Shown one piece after another: positions 3,899-30,766 of a stretch of 31,066 nucleotides of DNA. This DNA is from a virus (Duplodnaviria > Heunggongvirae > Uroviricota > Caudoviricetes), in the IMG/VR virus record IMGVR_UViG_2690316153_000021. The stretch is one strand, 5' to 3'. The notes beneath the pieces are model-generated. The model did no database searches, was not told the origin of the DNA, and was given only the letters and a program-made list of their open reading frames with translations. A program made the position numbers and the translations under genes. Within the stretch, counting starts at the first letter, position 1. Every line of letters starts with the position of its first letter.

Positions 3899-4170
3899 GC
3901 ATTCGTATTGAAATTGGCGAACGTTATGTGGTTACCAGTGACAGCTTCCAGTTTATTCTCCACGAGAAAAAGAGAGCGGAAAGCGGTAAAAACGCCGGTC
4001 AGGAGTGGCTGGCGGTGGTTGGTTATTACCCGAAATTAAGCCAGCTCGTTTCCGGCCTGATGCATCACGATATTCTGACCGGAAGCGCAAAGTCTTTTGC
4101 TGATTTAAACGCGCAGGTTGAGCAACTCAGCAAGCGTTGTTCTGAGGCTTTTGGCTCATATGGCCGTTAA
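3895..4170 (+). CDS. Hypothetical early protein (P2 orf83 position)
   Basis: 91-aa ORF, start overlaps previous stop (ATGA); immediately upstream of and overlapping A. Confidence 0.5.
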   Translation: MSIRIEIGERYVVTSDSFQFILHEKKRAESGKNAGQEWLAVVGYYPKLSQLVSGLMHHDILTGSAKSFADLNAQVEQLSKRCSEAFGSYGR

Positions 4171-6445
4171 AGCCTCCGGGCGTTTTGTCCCTCCGTCAGC
4201 ATTTGCCGCAGGCACCGGTAAGGCGTTTACTGGTGCTTATGCATGGAACGCGCCACGCGAGGCTGTCGGGCGCGAAAGACCCCTTACACGTGACGAGATG
4301 CGTCAGGTGCAAGGTGTTTTATCCACGATTAACCGCCTGCCTTACTTTTTGCGCTCGCTGTTTACTTCACGCTATGACTACATCCGGCGCAATAAAAGTC
4401 CGGTACACGGGTTTTATTTCCTCACATCCACTTTTCAGCGTCGTTTATGGCCGCGCATTGAGCGCGTGAATCAGCGCCATGAAATGAACACCGACGCGTC
4501 GTTGCTGTTTCTGGCAGAGCGTGACCACTATGCGCGCCTGCCTGGAATGAATGACAAGGAGCTGAAAAAGTTTGCCGCCCGTATCTCATCGCAGCTTTTC
4601 ATGATGTATGAGGAACTCTGCGATGCATGGGTTGATGCGCATGGTGAAAAAGAATCGCTGTTTACGGATGAGGCGCAGGCACATCTGTATGGTCATGTTG
4701 CTGGCGCTGCACGTGCTTTCAATATTTCCCCGCTCTACTGGAAAAAATACCGTAAAGGACAGATGACCACGAGGCAGGCATATTCTGCCATTGCCCGCCT
4801 GTTTAACGATGAGTGGTGGATTAGTCAGCTTAAAGGCCAGCGTATGCGCTGGCATGAAGCGTTACTGATAGCTGTCGGGGAGGTCAATAAAGACCGTTCT
4901 CCTTATGCCAGTAAACACGCCATTCGTGATGTGCGTGCGCGCCGCCAGGCAAATCTGGAATTTCTTAAATCGTGTGACCTTGAAAACAGGGAAACCGGCG
5001 AGCGCATCGACCTTATCAGTAAGGTGATGGGCAGTATTTCTAATCCTGAAATTCGCCGGATGGAGCTGATGAACACCATTGCCGGTATTGAGCGTTACGC
5101 CGCTGCAGAGGGTGATGTGGGGATGTTTATCACGCTGACCGCGCCGTCAAAGTATCACCCGACACGTCAGGTAGGAAAAGGCGAAAGTAAAACCGTGCAG
5201 CTTAATCACGGCTGGAACGATGAGGCATTTAATCCAAAGGATGCGCAGCGTTATCTCTGCCGTATCTGGAGCCTGATGCGCACGGCATTCAAGGATAATG
5301 ATTTACAGGTCTACGGTTTGCGTGTCGTCGAGCCACACCACGACGGAACGCCGCACTGGCATATGATGCTTTTTTGTAATTCACGCCAGCGTAACCAGAT
5401 TATCGAAATCATGCGTCGCTATGCGCTCAAAGAGGATGGCGACGAAAGAGGAGCCGCGCGAAACCGTTTTCAGGCAAAACACCTTAACCGGGGCGGTGCT
5501 GCGGGATATATCGCGAAATACATTTCAAAAAACATCGACGGCTATGCACTGGATGGTCAGCTCGATAACGACACCGGCAGGCCGCTGAAAGACACTGCAG
5601 CGGCTGTTACCGCATGGGCGTCAACGTGGCGCATCCCGCAATTTAAAACGGTTGGCCTGCCGACAATGGGGGCTTACCGTGAACTACGCAAATTGCCGCG
5701 CGGCGTCAGCATTGCTGATGAGTTTGACGAGCGCGTCGAGGCTGCACGCGCCGCCGCAGACAGTGGTGATTTTGCGTTGTATATCAGCGCGCAGGGTGGG
5801 GCAAATGTCCCGCGCGATTGTCAGACTGTCAGGGTCGCCCGTAGCCCGTCGGATGACGTTAACGAGTACGAGGAAGAAGTCGAGAGAGTGGTCGGCATTT
5901 ACGCGCCGCATCTCGGCGCGCGTCATATTCATATCACCAGAACGACGGACTGGCGCATTGTTCCGAAAGTTCCGGTCGTTGAGCCTTTGACTTTAAAAAG
6001 CGGCATCGCCGCGCCTCGGAGTCCTGTCAATAACTGTGGAAAGCTCACCGGTGGTGATGCTTCGTTACCGGCTCCCACACCTTCTGAGCACGCCGCAGCA
6101 GTGCTTAATCTGGTTGATGACGGTGTTATCGAATGGAATGACCCGGAGGTCGTGAGGGCGCTCAGAAGCGCATTAAAACACGGTCTGAGAAGACCAAACC
6201 GTCAGCAAAGAAACGGAAACCCGTTAAAACCGCATGAAATAGCGCCATCGGCCAGACTGACCCGGTCAGAACGATTGCAAATTACCCGTATCCGCGTTGA
6301 CCTCGCTCAGAACGGTATCAGGCCGCAACGATGGGAGCTTGAGGCGCTGGTGCGTGGCGCGACCGTAAATTATGACGGGAAAAAATTCACGTATCCGGTC
6401 GCTGATGAGTGGCCGGGATTCTCAACAGTAATGGAGTGGACATGA
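4160..6445 (+). CDS. A: Rolling-circle replication initiator endonuclease A
   Basis: ORF track 4118..6445; ATG at 4160 (MAVKASGRFV...) gives 761 aa, the P2 gpA length. Contains the HUH-type metal-binding motif (HWHMMLF) and catalytic tyrosine motif (YIAKYISK) of rolling-circle initiators. Confidence 0.9.
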   Translation: MAVKASGRFVPPSAFAAGTGKAFTGAYAWNAPREAVGRERPLTRDEMRQVQGVLSTINRLPYFLRSLFTSRYDYIRRNKSPVHGFYFLTSTFQRRLWPRIERVNQRHEMNTDASLLFLAERDHYARLPGMNDKELKKFAARISSQLFMMYEELCDAWVDAHGEKESLFTDEAQAHLYGHVAGAARAFNISPLYWKKYRKGQMTTRQAYSAIARLFNDEWWISQLKGQRMRWHEALLIAVGEVNKDRSPYASKHAIRDVRARRQANLEFLKSCDLENRETGERIDLISKVMGSISNPEIRRMELMNTIAGIERYAAAEGDVGMFITLTAPSKYHPTRQVGKGESKTVQLNHGWNDEAFNPKDAQRYLCRIWSLMRTAFKDNDLQVYGLRVVEPHHDGTPHWHMMLFCNSRQRNQIIEIMRRYALKEDGDERGAARNRFQAKHLNRGGAAGYIAKYISKNIDGYALDGQLDNDTGRPLKDTAAAVTAWASTWRIPQFKTVGLPTMGAYRELRKLPRGVSIADEFDERVEAARAAADSGDFALYISAQGGANVPRDCQTVRVARSPSDDVNEYEEEVERVVGIYAPHLGARHIHITRTTDWRIVPKVPVVEPLTLKSGIAAPRSPVNNCGKLTGGDASLPAPTPSEHAAAVLNLVDDGVIEWNDPEVVRALRSALKHGLRRPNRQQRNGNPLKPHEIAPSARLTRSERLQITRIRVDLAQNGIRPQRWELEALVRGATVNYDGKKFTYPVADEWPGFSTVMEWT

Positions 6446-6897
6446 TGGCAAAAATTCACGAGGTAAAGCTGCACGCAAAATATTTCGACCTTGTACTGGA
6501 AGGAAAAAAACGCGCAGAGTTTCGGAAAAATGACCGTAATTATGAGCGCGGGGACACGTTGATTTTGCATGAATGGGTGCAGGGTGTGTTTACGGGGCGA
6601 AAGGTTGAAGCCCGGATAACAGATGTTACTGACCTGTCAGACTGGCTGGAAGATTATGTCTTGCTAAGTATTGAGCTGCTTAATACGGGCGCATATAAGA
6701 TTGTGAACTGGAAAGAACTTAGTGAACGTGGTCTGGTATTCAGAATTAATCATGAAATTATGCATCAGCTCGGCCTTGCTGTTATGTATGAACCAGAGAC
6801 GGGGCTGTCTGGCGGGGCAGTGGTTGCTGCGGATGGGATATGGAACTATTCAGATGAACAGGTGGAGCGTGCAAAGCAAAACGGGTGGCTTGGATAA
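6445..6897 (+). CDS. ASCH/DUF3850-like domain protein with extra C-terminal region
   Basis: Start ATG overlaps the A stop (TGATG). N-terminus (HEVKLHAKYFDLVLEGKKRAEFRKNDRNYERGDTLILHEW) matches my recollection of the DUF3850 / ASCH (PUA-like) signature; C-terminal about 70 aa unassigned. Confidence 0.5.
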   Translation: MAKIHEVKLHAKYFDLVLEGKKRAEFRKNDRNYERGDTLILHEWVQGVFTGRKVEARITDVTDLSDWLEDYVLLSIELLNTGAYKIVNWKELSERGLVFRINHEIMHQLGLAVMYEPETGLSGGAVVAADGIWNYSDEQVERAKQNGWLG

Positions 6898-7103
6898 TGC
6901 ACAGAATACCAGGCGAGATACCGCACCATAAAACTAAAAATATCAAGCTGATGGCTATTGTTCAGCGTTTACAGCGGATTATGGTCAACGAAAATCTGAC
7001 GCCCGATGAGCTGGTCGGGTGTGCCGAAATAGTTCGGGATAATTACGGGCGGCTTAACTATATCGGTCAGTCCAGAGTTGCGCCACCACCACGAAGACGA
7101 TAG
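6897..7103 (+). CDS. Small hypothetical protein (68 aa)
   Basis: ATG overlaps the stop of the preceding gene (TAATG), suggesting translational coupling; otherwise no support. Confidence 0.3.
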   Translation: MHRIPGEIPHHKTKNIKLMAIVQRLQRIMVNENLTPDELVGCAEIVRDNYGRLNYIGQSRVAPPPRRR

Positions 7104-7284
7104 AGAACGCCGCCAGTCGTGAAACTTGTTTTCAGGGCTGGCGGGGTTGAACAACGAGCGTAGCGAGGCGTTAGTTGACAGACATATTTTTACTGCGTTG
7201 GTGCCGGTTTTTGACGGTTGAAAGGAGTTAGGTTGGAGAGCTAACAACTTACAAATATTCAAAAGTAAGCATCCTGTTGCTAAC

Positions 7285-8058
7285 ATGAGGTCGATTTTTT
7301 ATGTGGATGATGCAAAAAGGATAGCTATGGATACTATAATCGCTTTTCTATCACTCGCTTTTTTCGTTGCTTTCTTCATCGGGTTAATCAAGCCATCACT
7401 GGTGCGAATGCCAAACCGCAAACGTGCAAGTGCGGTTTATCTCGGAGGAGGTTTTGTATTGAGCATAATTGGTTCAATACTCTATCCAACAGAAAAAAGC
7501 CAGCCAGTTGATAAAACTGAAACATCAACCGTTGCAGAACATAAAGTCCAAAAAACATTCGAATATGGTGAAAAAACACTCAAGGAATATCGGAACGAGT
7601 CAAAGAAAACACGACACGATATTGTGAATAGTTACATTGATTTTAAGGAAGTTCCAGCCACCGCGTCAGATGCGTTTTATGCCTGCATGAGTGAATATAC
7701 ATTTACCAAAGATGATGAGTTGAAACTCGGTGATGTTCTTGGGTGGTGCTTTAATGATTATGAAAATGACCCGAATTCACTAAACAATAAAATCAATCTT
7801 GATACATTTCAGAGTAATTTTAGTGGTTGGGATGGTTCTTATCGTCCATTGGAAAAACTAATTAAAGATAATATGAACGATGATTCATCTTATAAACATG
7901 TATCAACGGTATATCATCTGGTTTTGAATAAAGACCCGCATGCCATTGTGAAAACCACGTTTCGCGGAACTAATGCTTATGGCGGAGTGGTGAAACAGAC
8001 GATTGCTGCGCGTGTTGATATAAAAACTGGTAAGGTGATATCAATCATAGATAATTGA
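7285..8058 (+). CDS. Accessory (moron) membrane protein: two N-terminal hydrophobic helices plus about 190-aa soluble domain, unknown family
   Basis: 257-aa ORF (an alternative start at ATG 7327 has an AAGGA SD). Hydrophobic segments TIIAFLSLAFFVAFFIGLI and VYLGGGFVLSIIGSILY. Visibly AT-rich relative to the flanking phage genes. Occupies the P2 tin/old slot between A and cos. Followed by a hairpin plus T-tract. Confidence 0.6.
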   Translation: MRSIFYVDDAKRIAMDTIIAFLSLAFFVAFFIGLIKPSLVRMPNRKRASAVYLGGGFVLSIIGSILYPTEKSQPVDKTETSTVAEHKVQKTFEYGEKTLKEYRNESKKTRHDIVNSYIDFKEVPATASDAFYACMSEYTFTKDDELKLGDVLGWCFNDYENDPNSLNNKINLDTFQSNFSGWDGSYRPLEKLIKDNMNDDSSYKHVSTVYHLVLNKDPHAIVKTTFRGTNAYGGVVKQTIAARVDIKTGKVISIIDN

Positions 8059-8067
8059 TATCTTACA

Positions 8068-8107
8068 ATGCCGACGCTGAATATTTAATTGGGTGTCGGC
8101 ATTTTTT
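8068..8107 (+). terminator. Rho-independent terminator-like hairpin after the first cargo gene
   Basis: atgccgac (8068-8075) pairs with gtcggcat (8095-8102), about 19-nt loop, followed by TTTTTT (8102-8107). Confidence 0.55.
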
Positions 8108-8167
8108 GACTATTAGAGCGGCAGAACCGAGATTTGTTGCGTATGAGATTAGCACTGCGAGAATGTT

Positions 8168-8950
8168 ATGAAAATTATAAACCAACTTAAGAAGTTTGAT
8201 AAGAAAAGAACGCCAGATGATGGCCGTATTAGTTTGTTATATGAAAACGCGATTAAGTATGATATGTACTCTGTATATATTAAAGATAAAAATGATACAG
8301 AATACCTCTTTGACTGTTTGGTTGATGGGAAGATAAAGGCTTTTAAATGGGATGATGAGGAGCGTAGATTTCATATAAGTTCATGCTTGGATATTTCTGA
8401 GGTTACGCCTGATTCTTTTTTTGGTGTTTACTACTACCGTGCGCATGAGTTGCGATTTAACTCTTTAAATGATTTAACATTTTTAAGGGAGTTGTTCTTT
8501 AGAGTAAAGTCTAATTATGAAAATATAAAGTTTAGTCGTGAAAAATATATTTATCGACAGCAAAAAAAAGAAATAACTGATGTGATGTTTGTTCTCTCAA
8601 CGATTATAAGAATGTATCGTGAATGGGATGCTCAAACTGTGTTTAGTGAGTTTTCAATAATGACCGAAGTCGCTGGTAGTTTATGGGTATACCATGACGA
8701 TAAAAACAGGATGCGTAAAGAGCTTCGTTTATGCCTGAATTCTCTTGTTCAGAATGGAGATCTTGTTGAAACAAGTAGTGGATTTAGGCCAACAGGAAAG
8801 GCACTGAACACAATATCTACATTCAATAAAGATGAGGTGCGGTACAGAGAGAATTTGAGTACTCAGAAGAAAATGTTTTGGGCTACTTTTTTCGCAGCAG
8901 TCGGCGGCGTAGGAAGTATGATTGCAGCTATAATAGGGCTTCTAAAATGA
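8168..8950 (+). CDS. Accessory (moron) protein with single C-terminal transmembrane anchor, unknown family
   Basis: 260-aa ORF, strongly AT-rich; C-terminal hydrophobic stretch (MFWATFFAAVGGVGSMIAAIIGLLK) at the extreme end, i.e. tail-anchored topology; preceded by a terminator, so probably its own transcription unit. In the P2 tin/old slot. Confidence 0.6.
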   Translation: MKIINQLKKFDKKRTPDDGRISLLYENAIKYDMYSVYIKDKNDTEYLFDCLVDGKIKAFKWDDEERRFHISSCLDISEVTPDSFFGVYYYRAHELRFNSLNDLTFLRELFFRVKSNYENIKFSREKYIYRQQKKEITDVMFVLSTIIRMYREWDAQTVFSEFSIMTEVAGSLWVYHDDKNRMRKELRLCLNSLVQNGDLVETSSGFRPTGKALNTISTFNKDEVRYRENLSTQKKMFWATFFAAVGGVGSMIAAIIGLLK

Positions 8951-9110
8951 GCCAACAAAATCGTATGATGAAGTATTGAGTGAAAAGCATTCTTTATATG
9001 CATTATTTTGCATGCAACATATGCTATACATTCTAGCTATGAATTGTCAGACGTGGCAGTACTTCTGTATGGTAATGCAACTGCATTAAAACCGCCCCAT
9101 GAAGCGGGCG

Positions 9111-9129
9111 GGCGAGGCGGGGAAAGCAC
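9111..9129. other. cos: cos site (19-nt cohesive end sequence GGCGAGGCGGGGAAAGCAC)
   Basis: Exact string ggcgaggcggggaaagcac at 9111-9129 matches the P2 cohesive-end sequence as I recall it, and lies in the GC-rich stretch just beyond the 3' end of portal gene Q, where cos sits in P2. Confidence 0.65.
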
Positions 9130-9269
9130 TGCGCGCTGGCGGTGGTGCTGATTTTATTTTTTCAGCGTCTGAGCGCGTCGTGATGGCGTTTAGATTGTTA
9201 GCCGGGGCGTTGGTGTGTCTGCGGGCTGTTTTGTGCGGTGGTGAGCGTGTGAGGGCGTGATGGCGGGTT

Positions 9270-9293
9270 GTAAAAAAGCCGCCCGCAGGCGGC
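9270..9293 (-). terminator. Rho-independent terminator downstream of Q (minus strand)
   Basis: GC hairpin gccgcc-cgca-ggcggc (9278-9293) immediately after the Q stop; on the minus strand it is followed by a U-tract (complement of AAAAAA 9272-9277). Confidence 0.6.
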
Positions 9294-9298
9294 GATGT

Positions 9299-19529: not shown

Positions 19530-20438
19530 ATGCCGATTATCGACCTGAACCAGCTACCCGCACCGGATGTGGTCGAGGAGCTGGACTTTGAAACCATTCT
19601 TGCCGAACGCAAGGCGACACTGATTTCCCTTTACCCGGAAGACCAGCAGGAGGCGGTCGCCCGTACCCTGATGCTGGAATCTGAGCCTCTCGTCAAACTG
19701 CTGGAGGAAAATGCTTATCGTGAGCTTATCTGGCGTCAGCGTGTGAATGAGGCCGCACGGGCGGTAATGCTGGCCTGTGCCGCCGGTAATGACCTTGATG
19801 TGATTGGTGCCAATTACAACACCACGCGCCTGATTATCACCCCGGCAGATGATTCGACTATCCCGCCGACACCGGCAGTGATGGAATCTGACACCGATTA
19901 TCGTCTGCGTATTCAGCAGGCGTTTGAAGGTTTAAGCGTCGCCGGGTCAGTGGGAGCCTATCAGTATCATGGTCGCAGTGCCGACGGGCGTGTCGCGGAT
20001 ATCTCTGTCACCAGTCCGTCTCCGGCCTGTGTCACTATCTCTGTGCTGTCTCGCGAAAATAACGGTATCGCATCCGAAGACCTGCTGGCGGTGGTGCGCA
20101 ACGCCCTTAATGGTGAGGACGTCAGGCCGGTGGCCGACCGCGTGACCGTGCAGTCTGCCGCCATCGTTGAATACCAGATAAACGCCACGCTTTACCTTTA
20201 CCCTGGTCCTGAAAGCGAACCCATCCGCGCTGCTGCCGTGAAAAAACTGGAAGCGTACATCACGGCACAGCACCGGCTGGGGCGCGACATCCGTCTGTCT
20301 GCCATTTATGCCGCTTTGCATGTGGAAGGCGTGCAGCGTGTCGAGCTGGCCGCACCACTGGCCGACATTGTGCTCAACAGTACGCAGGCGTCTTTCTGCA
20401 CCGAATACAGCGTCGTGACCGGAGGCTCGGATGAGTGA
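19530..20438 (+). CDS. J: Baseplate wedge protein J
   Basis: 302 aa, the P2 gpJ length. Confidence 0.88.
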   Translation: MPIIDLNQLPAPDVVEELDFETILAERKATLISLYPEDQQEAVARTLMLESEPLVKLLEENAYRELIWRQRVNEAARAVMLACAAGNDLDVIGANYNTTRLIITPADDSTIPPTPAVMESDTDYRLRIQQAFEGLSVAGSVGAYQYHGRSADGRVADISVTSPSPACVTISVLSRENNGIASEDLLAVVRNALNGEDVRPVADRVTVQSAAIVEYQINATLYLYPGPESEPIRAAAVKKLEAYITAQHRLGRDIRLSAIYAALHVEGVQRVELAAPLADIVLNSTQASFCTEYSVVTGGSDE

Positions 20439-21042
20439 TTCGCGCCTGCTGCCGACCGGCTCATCACCGCTTGAAGTCGCCGCCGCAAGAGCCTGTGCGG
20501 AAATTGAAAAAACGCCGGTCAGTATTCGTGAGCTGTGGAACCCGGATACCTGTCCGGCAAATCTGCTGCCGTGGCTGGCGTGGTCATTTTCGGTTGACCG
20601 CTGGGATGATAAGTGGCCGGAAGCGACAAAACGCGCTGTTATCCGCGATGCGTATTTCATTCACTGCCATAAGGGCACTATTGGTGCGATTCGCCGTGTG
20701 GTGGAGCCGCTCGGCTATCTGATTGAGGTGAGGGAGTGGTGGCAGCTCAACGAGGAGCCGGGGACGTTCCGCATCGTTGTTGGCGTGCTTGAGCAGGGTA
20801 TTACCGAGGAAATGTATCAGGAGCTGGAGCGTCTCGTTGCTGATGCAAAACCTGCAAGCCGCCATCTGACGGGACTGGCTATCAGTTTAAGTACAACCGG
20901 CAACATTTTTGTCGGTGCGGGATGCTATCACGGCGACGCCCTGACGGTTTATCCCTACACCCCGGAGGCCATTATTGTCGGAGGGGATTATTTCCCGGCC
21001 TCGGCCATTCATTTAATTGATAACCTGAGAGTAAACGCATGA
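20431..21042 (+). CDS. I: Baseplate wedge protein I
   Basis: 203 aa (P2 gpI is 176 aa); start overlaps J stop, stop overlaps H start. Confidence 0.82.
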   Translation: MSDSRLLPTGSSPLEVAAARACAEIEKTPVSIRELWNPDTCPANLLPWLAWSFSVDRWDDKWPEATKRAVIRDAYFIHCHKGTIGAIRRVVEPLGYLIEVREWWQLNEEPGTFRIVVGVLEQGITEEMYQELERLVADAKPASRHLTGLAISLSTTGNIFVGAGCYHGDALTVYPYTPEAIIVGGDYFPASAIHLIDNLRVNA

Positions 21043-22367
21043 CAGTGAAATACTACGCCATTCTGACTAATCAGGGCGCAGCACGGCTGGCTAACGCGAC
21101 GATGCTCGGCAGTAAGCTGAATCTGACGCAAATGGCCGTTGGTGATGCGAATGGTGTCTTGCCGACACCAGACCCGGCACAGATAAAACTGATTAACCAG
21201 AAACGCATCGCGCCGCTGAATCTTCTGAGTGTTGACCCGAACAACCAGAGTCAGATTATTGCGGAGCAAATCATCCCTGAGAACGAGGGCGGATTCTGGA
21301 TCCGTGAGATTGGGCTTTATGATGATGAAGGCGTACTCATTGCGGTGGCGAACTGCCCGGAAACGTACAAACCGCAGTTGCAGGAAGGCAGTGGTCGTAC
21401 CCAGACTATCCGCATGATTCTGGTTGTCACGAATACCGAAGCTATCACGCTGAAAATCGACCCGTCGGTGGTACTGGCGACCCGTAAATATGTGGATGAT
21501 GAAGTCCTGGAATTAAGGCTGTATGTGGATGACCAGATGAGCAAACACATTGCCGCACAGGACCCTCATACCCAGTATGCACAGAAACATAATCCGACAT
21601 TTACCGGAGAACCAAAAGCACCGACGCCTGCCGCAGGAAATAACACCACGCGGATTGCGACCACTGCGTTTGTACAGGCCGCTATTACCGCTCTGATTAA
21701 CGGTGCGCCTGACACGCTGGACACACTGAAAGAAATTGCCGCGGCCATTAACAATGACCCGAAATTCAGCACCACCATTAACAATGCGCTGGCAGGTAAA
21801 CAACCGCTGGACAATACGCTGACTCATTTGAGTGGAAAGGATGTTGCCGGTCTTCTCGCATACCTTGGTTTGGGAGAAGGCTCAGCATTACCTGTTGGGG
21901 TGCCTGTTCCATGGCCTTCAGCCACACCGCCAACAGGCTGGCTGAAATGCAACGGTGCGGCATTTTCTGCTGAAGAATACCCGGAACTGGCAAAGGCTTA
22001 TCCAACAAATAAATTACCTGATTTACGCGGTGAGTTTATTCGTGGATGGGATGATAGTCGTGGTATCGACAACGGGCGTGCGCTGCTTTCATCTCAAGGC
22101 CATTCACTCAGAGACCACTCACATAACCAGCAGATCTGGACAGGTTCAAATACAACATCGTCAACTATTGGTCAGGCCGGGAGTTATGCTCCGCTAGCAA
22201 CTGGAGGGGATGGGGGGATTGCCTATACTGACCGGGAGCCTCAAAGCCTACCTTCAGCAGTAAGAGCTGTCAGCACTCGTGGGGTTGCTTCTGACAATGC
22301 AGCGAATATTGGCACTGAAACCCGCCCGCGCAACATTGCATTTAACTACATCGTGAGGGCTGCATAA
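21039..22367 (+). CDS. H: Tail fibre protein H (constant N-terminal part fused to currently expressed variable C-terminus)
   Basis: 442 aa; N-terminus and the ...NALAGKQP... segment resemble P2 gpH; shorter than P2 H (669 aa). The crossover site lies in-frame at codons YLGLGE (21861-21878). Confidence 0.85.
   Translation: MTVKYYAILTNQGAARLANATMLGSKLNLTQMAVGDANGVLPTPDPAQIKLINQKRIAPLNLLSVDPNNQSQIIAEQIIPENEGGFWIREIGLYDDEGVLIAVANCPETYKPQLQEGSGRTQTIRMILVVTNTEAITLKIDPSVVLATRKYVDDEVLELRLYVDDQMSKHIAAQDPHTQYAQKHNPTFTGEPKAPTPAAGNNTTRIATTAFVQAAITALINGAPDTLDTLKEIAAAINNDPKFSTTINNALAGKQPLDNTLTHLSGKDVAGLLAYLGLGEGSALPVGVPVPWPSATPPTGWLKCNGAAFSAEEYPELAKAYPTNKLPDLRGEFIRGWDDSRGIDNGRALLSSQGHSLRDHSHNQQIWTGSNTTSSTIGQAGSYAPLATGGDGGIAYTDREPQSLPSAVRAVSTRGVASDNAANIGTETRPRNIAFNYIVRAA
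21853..21878. promoter_or_regulatory. gix/cix-like invertase crossover site (left), inside H
   Basis: ttctcgcatacc-TT-ggtttgggagaa: 26-bp imperfect palindrome with half-sites of the form TTnTCnnAAACC around a 2-bp core; its right 14 bp are the exact reverse complement of 23729-23742. Confidence 0.6.
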
Positions 22368-22969
22368 TGACACAGGCAAAATTAAACAGTGAATTTATTG
22401 CCACAGTAGCGGGTGATATTACCGTCTATAACTATGACAACACGACACGGGAATACATTTCATCATCAACAGAATATCTTGCCGTTGGCGTCGGTATCCC
22501 GGCATGTTCTTGTTTAGATGCACCAGTTACACATAAAGCTGGTTATGCAATCTGCCGTTCTGCAGATTTTAACTCATGGGAATATGTACCAGACCATCGC
22601 GGTGAAATCATCTATAGCACCGAAACAGGAGAATCGAAAGAAATCACAGCTCCGGGTGATTACCCTGAAAATACAACCACTATCGCCCCGTTAACGCCAT
22701 TCGATAAATGGGATGGTGAGAAATGGGTGACGGATACCGAGGCACAGCATAGCGCCGCACTAGACGCGGCAGAAGCAAAGCGCCAGTCGCTGATTGATGC
22801 TGCAATGGCTTCCATCAGTCTGATTCAGATGAAATTACGGGCCGGGCGGAAGCTGACGCAGGCAGAAACCACCCGACTTAACGCTGTGCTGGATTACATT
22901 GACGCGGTGGAGGCAACAGATACCAGCACCGCGCCTGATGTCATCTGGCCTGAACTGCCGGAGGCGTAG
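22367..22969 (+). CDS. G: Tail fibre assembly chaperone (Tfa) for the expressed fibre tip
   Basis: 200 aa; start overlaps H stop (TAATG); C-terminus (NAVLDYIDAVEATDTSTAPDVIWPELP) is the typical Tfa chaperone C-terminal motif. Confidence 0.8.
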   Translation: MTQAKLNSEFIATVAGDITVYNYDNTTREYISSSTEYLAVGVGIPACSCLDAPVTHKAGYAICRSADFNSWEYVPDHRGEIIYSTETGESKEITAPGDYPENTTTIAPLTPFDKWDGEKWVTDTEAQHSAALDAAEAKRQSLIDAAMASISLIQMKLRAGRKLTQAETTRLNAVLDYIDAVEATDTSTAPDVIWPELPEA

Positions 22970-23381
22970 GCCATTCAATATCTGGCGCACCGGAAGTATC
23001 GACCAGTTCCAGTGCGTCCAGATAATCCAGCCACAAATTATATTGCACCAGTTCCTCACCTTTCAGGCGACCAATCGCCGCTTTACCAGGCCATTGCTTA
23101 CTGTTTATGTATTCGTTGACCTGATTAATCAATTGCTGCTTTTTCAGTTCGGCTGCGGCAATTTGTTCCTCATGAGTTGGCGGTGGAATATCAATCCATG
23201 CAGGCATTCCGTCGATGACACCTCTGTATTTTCCTTCTGGTGCTTCCTTCATAAATTCGGCAGCAACAGTGTCGTCAATTTCGATTCCATCATCGGGCCA
23301 TTCGCCGGATTCCTGATAAGCGATTTTAAGCTCCACAGGGAAAAACGCATTTTTATCGGCACTGAAAATATATTTCTGCAT
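22941..23381 (-). CDS. Alternative tail fibre assembly chaperone (Tfa') inside the invertible segment
   Basis: 146 aa on the minus strand; C-terminus (NLWLDYLDALELVDTSGAPDIEWPTPP) is paralogous to the plus-strand Tfa motif; 3' ends of the two tfa genes converge and overlap by about 29 bp. Confidence 0.75.
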   Translation of the reverse strand: MQKYIFSADKNAFFPVELKIAYQESGEWPDDGIEIDDTVAAEFMKEAPEGKYRGVIDGMPAWIDIPPPTHEEQIAAAELKKQQLINQVNEYINSKQWPGKAAIGRLKGEELVQYNLWLDYLDALELVDTSGAPDIEWPTPPAVQAR

Positions 23382-23383
23382 TT

Positions 23384-23728
23384 CTACCGTCCTATCGAAA
23401 TATAACTGAATCTGTATTGCTGTGAGATATCACTGGTTGCCACACGCCACGCTGAATTACTGATATGTTCAAAATTTACAGACAAAACCTGCGGGGCAGG
23501 AATCGACGGGTCTGACTGAACGGCATCAGACATAACACTGACTGAAACCATCGGCTGATTAGGGAATGGTATAGGGAAGTGTCCACTGATAAAGCGGGTC
23601 GTGTTTCCTGCAAAAGTGCCAAACTGAACAATATATCCACCTGGTAGCCTGAACCATCCCGAACCAGAAGCGAATGCTCCCATATCCGGTATCTGATTAT
23701 CTCCTGTGCCCACATCCCTTTTCGCCGC
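23384..23728 (-). CDS. Silent alternative tail-fibre C-terminal cassette (Hv'), expressed only after inversion
   Basis: Minus-strand frame reads ...VGLGEAAKRDVGTGDNQ... through the right gix site, in the same codon phase as H reads YLGLGEGS through the left site, so inversion would create an in-frame H::Hv' fusion. ORF-track ORF 23384..23782 has its only ATG upstream of the site, so it has no plausible independent start. Confidence 0.6.
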   Translation of the reverse strand, partial: AAKRDVGTGDNQIPDMGAFASGSGWFRLPGGYIVQFGTFAGNTTRFISGHFPIPFPNQPMVSVSVMSDAVQSDPSIPAPQVLSVNFEHISNSAWRVATSDISQQYRFSYISIGR

Positions 23729-23754
23729 TTCTCCCAAACCAACGTTTATGAAAA
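23729..23754. promoter_or_regulatory. gix/cix-like invertase crossover site (right)
   Basis: ttctcccaaacc-AA-cgtttatgaaaa; left half-site identical to the reverse complement of the right half-site of the 21853-21878 site. Confidence 0.6.
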
Positions 23755-23809
23755 TGCAAAGATAACGGGCAAGTGGCATCATCTCCGGTTTTTATTCAGG
23801 GGGATGCTC

Positions 23810-24403
23810 ATGTTTATTGGCTATGTACGCGTATCAACAAATGACCAGAACACGGAATTGCAGCGTAACGCGCTGGAATGCGCGGGATGTGAGCGGATTT
23901 TTGAGGACAAAATCAGCGGCACGAAGTCCGACAGGCCGGGGCTGAAAAAACTGCTCAGGACATTATCGGAGGGGGATACACTGGTAGTCTGGAAGCTGGA
24001 CCGGCTGGGGCGTAGTATGCGGCATCTGGTCATTCTGGTTGAGGAACTGCGCGAACGTGGCATTAATTTTCGCAGCCTGACGGATGCTATTGATACCAGC
24101 ACGCCGATGGGGCGTTTTTTCTTTCATGTGATGGGTGCCCTGGCTGAAATGGAACGAGAACTCATTGTCGAGCGGACTCGGGCCGGGCTGGAAGCGGCCA
24201 GAGCCAAAGGTCGTATTGGTGGCAGACGTCCTAAACTCACCACGAGTGAGTGGGAGCAGGCCGGGCGTTTGCTGGCTGCAGGGGAGTCACGTCAACGCGT
24301 GGCACTGATTTTTGATATTGGTCTGTCCACGCTCTATAAAAAATTTCCCTCATCAGCGACAAAGAATAAATTGTGTCATCCCTTAGCCAACCGGGACAAA
24401 TAG
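23810..24403 (+). CDS. Serine DNA invertase, Gin/Pin/Cin/Hin family
   Basis: ORF track 23804..24403; N-terminus (M)FIGYVRVSTNDQNTELQRNAL... with catalytic-serine motif (VRVST), resolvase-type N-terminal domain and C-terminal HTH (GLSTLYKKF); immediately adjacent to the invertible segment. Start at 23804 or 23810. Confidence 0.9.
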   Translation: MFIGYVRVSTNDQNTELQRNALECAGCERIFEDKISGTKSDRPGLKKLLRTLSEGDTLVVWKLDRLGRSMRHLVILVEELRERGINFRSLTDAIDTSTPMGRFFFHVMGALAEMERELIVERTRAGLEAARAKGRIGGRRPKLTTSEWEQAGRLLAAGESRQRVALIFDIGLSTLYKKFPSSATKNKLCHPLANRDK

Positions 24404-24462
24404 CCTGACATCTCCGGCACAACTGAAAATATCACTCACCCATTAACCACGGAGTTAAACGG

Positions 24463-25653
24463 ATGAGTGACTATCATCACGGCGTGCAGGTGCTGGAGAT
24501 TAACGACGGCACCCGCGTCATTTCCACCGTATCCACTGCCATTGTCGGCATGGTCTGCACGGCCAGCGATGCGGATGCGGAAACCTTCCCCCTCAATAAA
24601 CCGGTGCTGATTACCAATGTGCAGAGTGCAATTGCAAAGGCTGGTAAAAAAGGCACGCTGGCGGCGTCGTTGCAGGCCATCGCTGACCAGTCAAAACCGG
24701 TCACCGTTGTCGTGCGTGTGGAAGACGGCACCGGCGAAGACGAGGAAACGAAACTTGCGCAGACCGTTTCCAATATCATCGGCACCACCGACGAAAACGG
24801 CCAGTACACCGGACTGAAAGCCCTGCTGGCGGCGGAGTCGGTAACCGGTGTTAAACCGCGTATTCTCGGCGTGCCGGGACTGGACACCAAAGAGGTGGCT
24901 GTTGCACTGGCATCAGTCTGTCAGAAGCTGCGCGCTTTCGGGTATATCAGCGCATGGGGCTGTAAAACCATTTCCGAGGTGAAAGCCTACCGTCAGAATT
25001 TCAGCCAGCGTGAGCTGATGGTCATCTGGCCGGATTTCCTCGCATGGGATACGGTCACCAGTACTACCGCCACCGCGTATGCCACCGCCCGTGCGCTGGG
25101 TCTGCGTGCCAGAATTGACCAGGAGCAGGGCTGGCATAAAACGCTGTCCAATGTCGGGGTGAACGGTGTTACCGGCATCAGCGCCTCTGTATTCTGGGAT
25201 TTGCAGGAGTCCGGCACCGATGCTGACTTGCTTAACGAGTCAGGCGTCACAACGCTGATTCGCCGCGACGGTTTCCGCTTCTGGGGTAACCGTACCTGCT
25301 CTGATGACCCGCTGTTCCTCTTTGAAAACTACACCCGCACCGCGCAGGTGCTGGCCGACACGATGGCTGAGGCGCACATGTGGGCGGTGGACAAGCCCAT
25401 CACCGCAACGCTGATTCGCGACATCGTTGACGGCATCAATGCCAAATTCCGTGAGCTGAAAACAAACGGCTATATCGTGGATGCGACCTGCTGGTTCAGC
25501 GAAGAATCCAACGATGCGGAAACCCTCAAGGCCGGAAAACTGTATATCGACTACGACTATACACCGGTGCCTCCTCTTGAAAACCTGACCCTGCGCCAGC
25601 GTATTACCGATAAATACCTGGCAAATCTGGTCACTTCGGTTAACAGCAATTAA
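24463..25653 (+). CDS. FI: Contractile tail sheath protein
   Basis: 396 aa, the P2 gpFI length; first gene of the FI-FII-E-T-U-D operon. Confidence 0.9.
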   Translation: MSDYHHGVQVLEINDGTRVISTVSTAIVGMVCTASDADAETFPLNKPVLITNVQSAIAKAGKKGTLAASLQAIADQSKPVTVVVRVEDGTGEDEETKLAQTVSNIIGTTDENGQYTGLKALLAAESVTGVKPRILGVPGLDTKEVAVALASVCQKLRAFGYISAWGCKTISEVKAYRQNFSQRELMVIWPDFLAWDTVTSTTATAYATARALGLRARIDQEQGWHKTLSNVGVNGVTGISASVFWDLQESGTDADLLNESGVTTLIRRDGFRFWGNRTCSDDPLFLFENYTRTAQVLADTMAEAHMWAVDKPITATLIRDIVDGINAKFRELKTNGYIVDATCWFSEESNDAETLKAGKLYIDYDYTPVPPLENLTLRQRITDKYLANLVTSVNSN

Positions 25654-29122: not shown

Positions 29123-29602
29123 ATGATGCTCGCGTTAGGTATGTTTGTTTTTATGCGCCAGACGCTGCCACACCAGACCATGCAGCGTGAATCAGATTAT
29201 CGCTGGCCGTCAAATTCCCGTATCGGCAAACGGGATGCCTTTCAGTTTCTCGGTGTGGGTGAGGAAAACATCACGCTGGCCGGTGTGCTTTATCCCGAAC
29301 TGACCGGCGGCAAGCTGACGATGACCACGCTCAGGCTGATGGCAGAGGAAGGCCGGGCGTGGCCGTTGCTGGATGGCACCGGCATGATTTACGGCATGTA
29401 TGTCATCAGTAAGGTGAGTGAAACAGGGAGTATTTTCTTTGCAGACGGCACACCCCGAAAAATTGATTTTACGCTGTCGCTCACCCGCGTTGATGAATCA
29501 CTGGCCGCGCTTTATGGCGATATCGGTAAACAGGCGGAATCGCTCATCGGTAAGGCTGGCAATATGGCGACTAAATTCACGGGTATGACGGAGGCGGGAT
29601 AA
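29123..29602 (+). CDS. U: Tail protein U (tail tube terminator/initiator)
   Basis: 159 aa, the P2 gpU length; AAGGAGG SD. Confidence 0.88.
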   Translation: MMLALGMFVFMRQTLPHQTMQRESDYRWPSNSRIGKRDAFQFLGVGEENITLAGVLYPELTGGKLTMTTLRLMAEEGRAWPLLDGTGMIYGMYVISKVSETGSIFFADGTPRKIDFTLSLTRVDESLAALYGDIGKQAESLIGKAGNMATKFTGMTEAG

Positions 29603-30766
29603 TGCTGGATGCGCTGACATTTGATGCAGGCAGTACGCTGACGCCGGATTACATGCTGATGCTCGACAGCAAGGATATTACCGGCAATATCAGCGACCGT
29701 CTGATGAGCATGACCCTGACGGATAACCGGGGCTTTGAGGCTGACCAGCTTGATATTGAACTGAACGACGCCGACGGGCAGGTCGGGCTACCGATTCGTG
29801 GCGCTGTCCTGACGGTGTATATCGGCTGGAAAGGTTTTGCCCTGGTATGCAAAGGGAAATTTACCGTTGATGAGGTTGAACACCGGGGCGCGCCGGATGT
29901 GGTTACCATCCGCGCCCGGAGTGCAGATTTCCGCGGGACGCTCAATTCCCGCCGTGAAGGCTCCTGGCATGACACCACGCTCGGTGCGATTGTTGAGGCG
30001 ATAGCCTCCCGTAACAGGCTGGAAGCCAGTGTCGCTCCGTCACTGGCCGGAATTAAAATCCCGCACATCGACCAGTCGCAGGAGTCTGATGCGAAATTCC
30101 TGACCCGTCTTGCAGAACGCAACGGCGGTGAGGTGTCGGTAAAAATGGGAAAACTGTTGTTTCTCAAAGCGGGGGCAGGGGGTGACGGCCAGCGGTAAAA
30201 AAATCCCGCAGATTACCATCACCCGCAGCGACGGCGACCGTCATCATTTTGCGATTGCTGACCGTGGAGCCTATACCGGCGTAACGGCAAAGTGGCTTCA
30301 CACCAAAGACCCGAAGCCGCAAAAGCAGAAGGTAAAACTGAAACGCAAAAAGAAAGAAAAACACCTGCGCGCACTGGAGCACCCAAAAGCGAAACCGGTC
30401 AGGCAGAAGAAAGCGCCAAAAGTACCGGAAGCGCGCGAAGGTGAATATATGGCCGGTGAGGCTGACAATGTTTTTGCCCTGACCACGGTATATGCCACGA
30501 AAGCGCAGGCCATGCGCGCCGCTCAGGCGAAGTGGGATAAACTGCAACGGGGCGTTGCGGAGTTCTCCATCAGCCTGGCTACCGGTCGGGCAGATATTTA
30601 CACGGAAACACCGGTTAAAGTGTCAGGCTTTAAGCGCGTCATAGACGAGCAGGACTGGACAATCACTAAGGTGACACATTTTCTGAATAATAGCGGCTTC
30701 ACGACGTCCCTGGAGCTTGAGGTCAGGCTTTCTGATGTGGAGTACGAAACAGAAGATGATGAGTGA
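29602..30766 (+). pseudogene. D: Tail protein D (baseplate hub, late-control D protein) interrupted by a +1 frameshift
   Basis: Two adjacent ORFs (29602..30198, 198 aa; 30182..30766, 194 aa) together span 1165 nt, one more than the 1164 nt expected for P2 gpD (387 aa + stop). The frames switch within gcGGGGGcaGGGGGtg (30171-30182). Could be a genuine inactivating mutation or a homopolymer sequencing error. Confidence 0.75.

Follow-up and report, generated by a model that had tools for sequence, protein, structure and literature searches.

The DNA between tail genes I and FI of this P2-like prophage raises the question of whether a single phage could carry two different tail fibers and exchange one for the other by inverting a segment of its own genome. 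Invertible fiber cassettes, by means of which a temperate phage hedges between hosts, are textbook knowledge in the case of Mu, P1 and e14. The stretch of DNA analyzed, IMG/VR record IMGVR_UViG_2690316153_000021 at its full length of 31,066 nucleotides, is referred to below as the window. A preliminary description had read the region as a P2-type tail module with a Gin/Pin-family invertase, and this was borne out by the Pfam assignments and by the identity of the invertase to PinE and Gin given below.

Judged by its sequence, the window belongs to the P2 family (Peduovirus) and is a prophage of the Escherichia coli type. From int to ogr, its open reading frames followed the order of the P2 genes, and those for replication, the head, lysis, and the contractile tail were of the P2 type. 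This order agreed with the Pfam matches in the window (integrase, Cox, GPA, Tail_P2_I, and sheath), as well as with the annotation by PGAP of the BUCT2930 prophage, which is 98% identical to the window. Peduovirus records aligned to the window at 96–97% nucleotide identity over 75–84% of the query. In comparison with canonical P2, the backbone outside the hotspots was 92–97% identical, the gene order was the same, and the P_F promoter was retained. The cargo of the other hotspot in the window had no match with Pfam or PADLOC.

Analyses by blastn indicated that nucleotide homology to P2 stopped at approximately position 20867, inside gene I (baseplate/tail protein I, 20431–21042, plus strand; Pfam Tail_P2_I, E 4e-56), and was found again at 24383, at the P_F activator site. 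Canonical P2 has, as had been described, a longer H gene that is fixed (669 residues), followed by G, a terminator, fun(Z), and FI; G is its single chaperone, and it has neither an invertase nor Din-type sites. The proposal that the invertase cassette sits in the Z/fun slot was confirmed, but the foreign block is larger than that slot. Since P2 homology is absent from about 20867 to 24383, the whole fiber module has been replaced, beyond Z/fun alone. The late promoter P_F region with its activator (Ogr) binding site (24371–24462, plus strand) was located by aligning the window with the activator site and the start of transcription that are annotated in P2. It overlaps the final codons of the invertase open reading frame, and invertase-free P2-like prophages align to the window from 24371 onward. 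The right edge of the hotspot is the FI tail sheath gene (24463–25653, plus strand), which has Pfam sheath domains and 96% nucleotide identity to P2 FI.

Two 26-bp recombination sites, each with 12-bp half-sites on either side of a 2-bp core, were identified in mutually inverted orientation at the coordinates previously given for a pair of gix-like sites. The left site (pixL/gixL-like, 21853–21878) has the sequence TTCTCGCATACC-TT-GGTTTGGGAGAA, with its TT core at 21865–21866, and lies inside H at the codons for YLGLGE (residues 275–280). The right site (pixR-like, 23729–23754) has the sequence TTCTCCCAAACC-AA-CGTTTATGAAAA, with its AA core, which is TT on the other strand, at 23741–23742; on the minus strand it is read as VGLGE in the same codon phase. 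The inverted repeat within the sites is perfect, as first reported, but it is 15 bp long (21865–21879 and 23728–23742), one base more than the 14 bp originally counted. The left site also holds the experimentally validated e14 crossover repeat, TTGGTTTGGGAGAAGG. When the 31 kb was searched with the Din-site consensus, allowing up to three mismatches, these two sites were the only matches, and the same search of 100 dinucleotide-preserving shuffles had none. A third recombination site and stray half-sites were also sought in the window, and none was found. The invertible segment so defined is 1878 bp from core to core (21865–23742), and its inversion in silico produced an uninterrupted H' frame of 394 residues, consistent with the shared codon phase noted at the outset.

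The part of H that is kept in both orientations comprises residues 1–275 (21039–21864, plus strand). It was assigned to the Pfam Phage_tail_fib N-terminal domain (E 1.6e-61) and has approximately 40% amino acid identity to the N-terminus of P2 H. Downstream of it in the present orientation is the expressed tip, which is StfE-like and has 162 residues after GLGE (21879–22367, plus strand; Pfam Collar, E 4.7e-15). The alternative tip, which is currently unfused, has 114 residues after GLGE (23384–23728, minus strand; Pfam Gp53-like_C, E 5e-9). The earlier lengths of 163 and 115 residues hold if the shared glutamate is counted, but are one residue too long for the tips proper. The free-standing open reading frame of the alternative tip (23384–23782, minus strand) extends to 23782 and begins with the leader MMPLARYLCIFINVGLGE. 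Both tips matched the C-termini of PHROG tail-fiber families, and tips 96–98% identical to the alternative one are found in several phage records. When compared with known fibers, the expressed tip had 56% identity to e14 StfE, with the first ~60 residues near-identical. The tips of Mu, which had also been suggested for comparison, were unrelated in sequence, and the second tip was unlike that of e14.

Each tip has a chaperone of its own, so that the two tip-plus-Tfa cassettes of the preliminary description were upheld. The TfaE-like chaperone of the expressed tip (200 residues; 22367–22969, plus strand; Pfam Caudo_TAP, E 2e-32) is 88.5% identical to e14 TfaE, and its orthologue is named tfaE by PGAP. 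The alternative, TfaP-like chaperone (146 residues; 22941–23381, minus strand; Pfam Caudo_TAP, E 9e-34) is 56% identical to e14 TfaP. The two Tfa genes are convergent and overlap by 29 bp. The tips differ in domain family (Collar versus gp53-like_C), and each has a separate chaperone, which fits their recognizing what would be different receptors.

The enzyme most likely to act on the two sites is encoded immediately to their right. The gene for a Din-family serine DNA invertase (23810–24403, plus strand) specifies 197 residues from the PGAP start, and its reading frame also opens at 23804. The protein has Pfam Resolvase (E 7.6e-53) and HTH_7 (E 8.7e-13) domains, 86% identity to e14 PinE and, over 181 residues, 80% to Mu Gin. 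Its best match among solved structures was Gin (3UJ3, E 1e-94), which aligned over the full length. The motifs GYVRVSTNDQ, which contains the catalytic Ser9, and VVWKLDRLGRS are identical to those in Gin and PinE, and the catalytic serine region is intact, as had been thought. Residues 106 and 114 are wild-type, whereas the crystallized Gin (3UJ3) has the activating substitution M114V.

The expectation of a Fis-binding enhancer in the 5' part of the invertase gene led, at the sequence level, to one candidate. The predicted recombinational enhancer (23832–23894) consists of two Fis-consensus 15-mers (23832–23846 and 23880–23894) that are 48 bp apart from center to center, and these form the sole consensus pair with that spacing in the gene. 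The consensus used is degenerate, being expected at 1 in 128 per position. In gin and pinE, as in the window, the two 15-mers start at positions 23 and 71 of the gene, and the crossover is 97.5 bp from the predicted enhancer in the window versus 96.5 bp in e14 and Mu. Over the first 10 codons of the gene, conservation at the third codon position is unusually high. Another Fis pair from an ad hoc scan (G...C 15-mers) was dropped as it was unconvincing and is missing in pinE. Scans of positions 20900–24600 for sigma-70 promoters and intrinsic terminators returned counts no better than those of shuffled sequences.

Comparison of public genomes showed that inversion at these sites has occurred in nature, in near-identical relatives of the window. 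Two unrelated E. coli genomes, from strains BS74R-D (Switzerland; L003) and E-93 (China; L004), have a 95%-identical prophage, and the two are identical to one another over 6510 bp except for the inverted segment. The 1857 bp between the repeats in L003 are the exact reverse complement of those in L004, with no mismatches. The breakpoints fall within the repeat of each site, and the constant part of H is the same in both. The inverted orientation foreseen in the preliminary description was thus present in sequenced genomes. Among close relatives, with at least 80% coverage of either the window orientation or the flipped construct as the threshold, 19 genomes had the orientation of the window and 16 had the flipped one. 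In addition, the H' obtained in silico was 97–98% identical to the annotated 394-residue H proteins of genomes in the flipped orientation.

Together, these data support the assignment of the tail-fiber module as a two-state, site-specific inversion switch of the Pin/Gin type that swaps fiber tips, to which we give a probability of roughly 0.88. In the mechanism that we propose, dimers of the invertase would bind both 26-bp sites and host Fis would bind the predicted enhancer near the start of the invertase gene, Fis dependence being presumed. The proteins and the supercoiled DNA would form an invertasome, in which cleavage of both sites at their 2-bp cores would lead to exchange of the 1878-bp segment. 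As the left site is inside H, the constant N-terminal 275–280 residues, which would attach the fiber to the baseplate, would be joined to either of two tips. In the present orientation H would have the 162-residue collar-domain StfE-like tip, co-transcribed with the TfaE-like chaperone. In the flipped orientation it would have the 114-residue gp53-like tip, co-transcribed with the TfaP-like chaperone. Because inversion provides alternative tips, a lysogenic population would release two virion types that differ in receptor specificity. We infer that this particular copy is able to switch and, by analogy with Mu and P1, that the switch would be one of host range.

The best-surviving alternative, though in our view an unlikely one, is that the module is a relic in a decaying prophage, in which inversion is still possible but has no effect on host range. 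This idea is based on tail gene D, which in the window has an extra G in a run of G residues near 30171–30175 (GGGGG, versus GGGG in P2 and BUCT2930). As a result of this frameshift, there are two open reading frames (29602–30198 and 30182–30766) in place of one 1164-bp gene. If the insertion were real, this copy could not build tails, and its switch would be without consequence for host range. The extra G is unique to the window, being found in none of the 1622 E. coli genomes that hold the region. However, it is the sole indel in 21.5 kb aligned to the closest relative and is in a homopolymer, and a sequencing or assembly error is therefore an equally likely origin. In addition, no other structural gene is disrupted, and the invertase and the two cassettes are intact.

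A considerably less probable alternative is that the switch serves the host rather than the phage. Inversion would then determine which tip is carried on the free-standing minus-strand open reading frame, and the product would block the adsorption of other phages. There is a reported precedent in e14, where inversion of the P segment by PinQ/PinE is said to produce a chimera, StfE2, that prevents T2 from adsorbing (Kirigo et al. 2025). The window resembles e14 in that the repeats are the same, the right sites are identical, and the leader frame on the minus strand is homologous. On these grounds it is conceivable, if rather improbable, that the "silent" cassette may be expressed in the lysogen as the frame at 23384–23782, with the leader fused to the resident tip, and may mask receptors. 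If this were true, the ~36% of P2-like prophages in E. coli that have this module would provide phase-variable superinfection defense in addition to a host-range switch. However, no promoter of the minus-strand frame was detected above chance, the tips are unlike those of e14 (one has 56% identity and the other is not detectably similar), and the presence of the module is already explained by its position in a late operon that is complete, within a phage that is otherwise intact.

Two further explanations have very little likelihood. A multi-site module of the shufflon type, such as Min of p15B, would specify more than two fiber variants, and a three-repeat module does exist in one EPEC P2-like prophage, but the window has two sites, no additional half-sites, and two tip-plus-Tfa cassettes. 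Finally, although recombination is possible in principle at any inverted repeat, a chance repeat, or one flipped by general homologous recombination, is effectively refuted by the empty shuffles, by a repeat of just 15 bp placed within full 26-bp sites whose cores match, by the adjoining dedicated invertase that is 86% identical to PinE, and by a natural flip that breaks exactly inside the repeat.

The assignment of the module as a two-state inversion switch has a small practical value, in that it is a clean case where public genomes alone prove inversion. It is also a reminder that two forms of the fiber gene are valid in such prophages. Because H is called at different lengths across assemblies, both the annotation of prophages and the prediction of host range are complicated.

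Of the known systems, Mu G/Gin and P1 C/Cin share the general plan of the window, the direct comparison having been made with Mu. The constant 5' part of the fiber gene is outside the invertible segment and two tip-plus-chaperone cassettes are inside it. In Mu the gene for the invertase, with the Fis enhancer inside it, directly follows the right site, and the arrangement in the window is the same, with the enhancer predicted. Gin is 80% identical to the invertase of the window, and the sites have the same architecture, but their sequences differ at several positions. The Mu segment is also longer (~3 kb), its tips are unrelated to those of the window, and the Tfa C-termini are weakly similar.

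As a switch, the module is most closely related to the P segment of the cryptic prophage e14 with PinE, in E. coli K-12. The right site of e14 is identical to that of the window at 26 of 26 bases, the left site differs at three bases, and the 15/16-bp crossover repeat is the same; the e14 repeats invert in experiments. The likenesses extend to the invertase (86%), TfaE (88.5%), the TfaP-like second chaperone (56%), the StfE-like tip, the 29-bp overlap of the convergent Tfa genes, and a nearly equal distance from the right site to the start of the invertase gene. The two differ in the central part of the StfE-like tip, in the entire second (gp53-like) tip, and in the constant part, which is a P2-family H in the window and StfP in e14. 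Furthermore, e14 is a defective lambdoid element whose fiber genes are remnants, whereas in the window the module is part of a contractile-tail operon of the P2 type that is complete.

The same thing as the window is found in those P2-like (Peduoviridae) prophages whose Z/fun hotspot holds an invertase, an arrangement described in 2024. They share the layout I-H-Tfa / Tfa'-tip' / invertase / FI, annotated as DNA invertase, and include pro483, "P2" of O157:H43 T22, 500465-2, S164, Salmonella phage MET_P1_103_31, Klebsiella Kp4845-2, and two EPEC E2348/69 P2-like prophages. Coexisting inversion variants of the EPEC P2-like prophages were identified by sequencing and confirmed by PCR (2014), and the link between the window and that experiment is one of element type rather than of sequence alignment. 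The arrangement is common and already described, and the window adds no new principle: a recombinase-FI junction is present in 581 (~36%) of the 1608 E. coli genomes that have this P2-type FI gene. These prophages differ from the window in tip pairing only, and the pairing of the window itself recurs in the 19 and 16 close matches.

Analysis of the fibre region indicated that its longest inverted repeat was formed by two 26-bp sites, at 21853-21878 (TTCTCGCATACC-TT-GGTTTGGGAGAA) and 23729-23754 (TTCTCCCAAACC-AA-CGTTTATGAAAA), where the preliminary description had placed two inverted gix-like sites. The perfect repeat claimed within them was also found, although its core measured 15 bp (21865-21879 and 23728-23742) and not 14 bp. 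A search with the consensus site of the Din (Gin/Hin/Cin/Pin) invertases, allowing up to three mismatches, returned only these two matches in the 31-kb window and none across 100 dinucleotide-preserving shuffles of it; no third Din site or stray half-site was found in the window. The right site was identical (26/26 bases) to that of e14, the cryptic prophage of E. coli K-12, whereas the left site differed from its e14 counterpart at three bases. The left site contained the 16-bp repeat TTGGTTTGGGAGAAGG, identified by Kirigo et al. as the e14 P-segment crossover repeat for PinE and PinQ.

The sites lie in a compact module. Gene I (20431-21042, + strand) is followed by the tail-fibre gene H (21039-22367, +), whose 442-aa product has a tail-fibre N-terminal domain and a Collar domain, and by a Caudo_TAP chaperone gene (22367-22969, +). 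Convergent with the latter, and overlapping it by 29 bp (22941-22969) in an arrangement like that of tfaP and tfaE in e14, is a second Caudo_TAP chaperone gene (22941-23381, −), next to which are a gp53-like C-terminal tip (23384-23782, −), a serine recombinase gene with Resolvase and HTH_7 domains (23810-24403, +) and the FI sheath gene (24463-25653, +). The left site falls within H at YLGLGE (aa 275-280), and reverse-complementing 21865-23742 in silico produced an uninterrupted 394-aa H product (H'), in agreement with the in-frame tip swap that had been proposed. Compared with e14, the expressed tip was StfE-like (56% overall, with a near-identical start) and its chaperone TfaE-like (88.5%), and the second chaperone was TfaP-like (56%). 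Both tips matched tail-fibre PHROG families at their C-termini and were seen again in unrelated phage types, a recurrence that is the usual mosaicism of fibres. A second inverted repeat of 24 nt (22888-22911 and 23008-23031; 79% complementary) is present because the convergent chaperone genes encode similar C-terminal motifs, LDYIDAVE and LDYLDALE.

The inverted orientation, on whose detection the preliminary description had made its claim depend, was found in public genomes. At a coverage of at least 80%, searches with the window orientation and with the in-silico flipped construct identified 19 and 16 E. coli genomes, respectively, and H', aligned along its whole length, shared 97-98% identity with the annotated 394-aa H proteins of flipped genomes. 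E. coli strains BS74R-D (human, Switzerland) and E-93 (China) carry prophages approximately 95% identical to the window, with the same 26-bp sites and with common protein accessions for J, I, both chaperones, the invertase and the sheath. These two prophages were identical over 6510 bp except for the 1857 bp between the repeats, which were an exact reverse complement with no mismatches. Breakpoints in the 15-bp repeat without any point change are the signature of recent site-specific recombination. In the E. coli genome NZ_OY754349.1, two related P2-like prophages had opposite orientations of the fibre segment (4637437-4640892 and 1771639-1775094). Where one cell has several Din invertases, cross-inversion in trans is likely.

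The recombinase is a member of the Din family, with 86% identity to e14 PinE and 80% to Mu Gin (181 residues), and its top match among solved structures was Gin (3UJ3; E 1e-94). Its catalytic Ser9 is retained, and wild-type residues are found at both positions that are altered in the crystallised Gin (S9A and the activating M114V). Known Din systems require an enhancer, bound by Fis, within the 5' part of the invertase gene. In the window gene, pinE and gin alike, a scan with the degenerate Fis consensus KNNYRNNWNNYRNNM gave a single pair of matches spaced by 48 bp, located in all three at gene positions 23 and 71; the window coordinates are 23832-23846 and 23880-23894. The first predicted Fis site is 97.5 bp from the crossover point, compared to 96.5 bp in Mu and e14. 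Third positions in the first ten codons of the three genes were conserved in 8/10 cases, against a typical 1-3/10, which is compatible with an additional constraint at the DNA level. These features suggest, but do not prove, the enhancer that the preliminary description had proposed looking for.

Together, these data confirmed the earlier observation and, with minor corrections, supported its interpretation. We propose that the invertase, acting at both sites with Fis at the putative enhancer, would invert the 1878-bp segment. In the orientation of the window, H ends in the collar-type tip and would be co-transcribed with the TfaE-like chaperone; after inversion it would end in the gp53-like tip, served by the TfaP-like chaperone. 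The Mu G and P1 C segments suggest by analogy that, if the window copy is active, two virion types recognizing different receptors would result.

A complete P2-type prophage makes up the remainder of the window, which spans exactly from the integrase stop codon to that of ogr and includes no attachment sites or flanks. It was 96-97% identical to Peduovirus records and 98% identical to a prophage of E. coli BUCT2930 (NZ_CP059723.1; examined locus, 1-35001), which sits between pflA and pflB. Nucleotide homology to canonical P2 was lost inside gene I, at approximately 20867, and returned at 24383, within the site annotated for activator binding at the late promoter P_F. P2 promoter sequence therefore supplies the final codons of the invertase. 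The ORF enters this region at 24371-24403, and the read-through makes its product longer at the C-terminus than PinE (184 aa) and Gin (193 aa). Because the stop codon falls within conserved P2 promoter DNA, the right junction of the module directly adjoins the late promoter. P2-like prophages without the invertase aligned to the window from 24371 onward. In canonical P2 the corresponding interval is occupied by genes for a 669-aa H and for G, by a terminator and by fun(Z), without any Din site. The contrast drawn earlier with P2 was therefore correct, but the replacement is not limited to the Z/fun slot, as the whole fibre module has been replaced. Divergence from P2 affects the end of gene I jointly with the constant N-terminal part of H (3' end of I to 21864, from 20868), the latter with only ~40% protein identity to P2 H, and the sequences suggest that the fibre and its baseplate socket are exchanged as a single unit.

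A single additional G in a G-run near 30171-30175 (GGGGG, compared to GGGG in P2 and the BUCT2930 prophage) divides gene D (29602-30766), an essential tail gene, into two ORFs. This sole indel in 21.5 kb relative to the nearest relative was present in 0/1622 E. coli genomes with the region. Either it is a private mutation that inactivates D, or it is a sequencing error in a homopolymer. The other classic cargo hotspot of P2, at the old/tin position between genes A (replication) and Q (portal), spans 6446-9298 and holds three ORFs (6969-7286, −; 7285-8058, +; 8168-8950, +) that had no Pfam or PADLOC match and fell only in PHROGs of unknown function (33524, 3403 and 7611). The closest relative has other cargo here, an AAA ATPase and a hypothetical protein, and the ORFs are a candidate uncharacterised accessory or defence module.

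According to Kirigo et al. (2025), inversion of the homologous e14 segment produces, from a free-standing ORF beside the right site, a chimeric protein that blocks T2 adsorption. Because a leader ORF homologous to this one is present in the window (23384-23782), a similar host-defence role is conceivable; no support for its expression was found in the window.

The module is a well-known and common type of element and nothing new. The FI gene of the window was present in 1608 of 5426 complete E. coli genomes, and a recombinase gene abuts it in 581 of these (~36%). In the Klebsiella pneumoniae Peduoviridae prophage Kp4845-2 (OK490395.1), positions 4001-6632 of the examined locus matched window 21717-24348 at 92.7% identity, with both cassettes, the invertase and both sites, the latter with 1-2 base changes; the rest of that backbone had no match to the window at megablast level. 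On this comparison, the invertible module appears to move between genera as a unit. The same layout, with an annotated "DNA invertase", is already present in the records of pro483, "P2" of O157:H43 T22, 500465-2 and S164, and in Salmonella MET_P1_103_31 and Kp4845-2. Another precedent is provided by Fin, the invertase of Fels-2. Coexisting inversion variants were reported by Goldberg et al. (2014), by deep sequencing and PCR, for two EPEC P2-like prophages, one two-state and one four-state.
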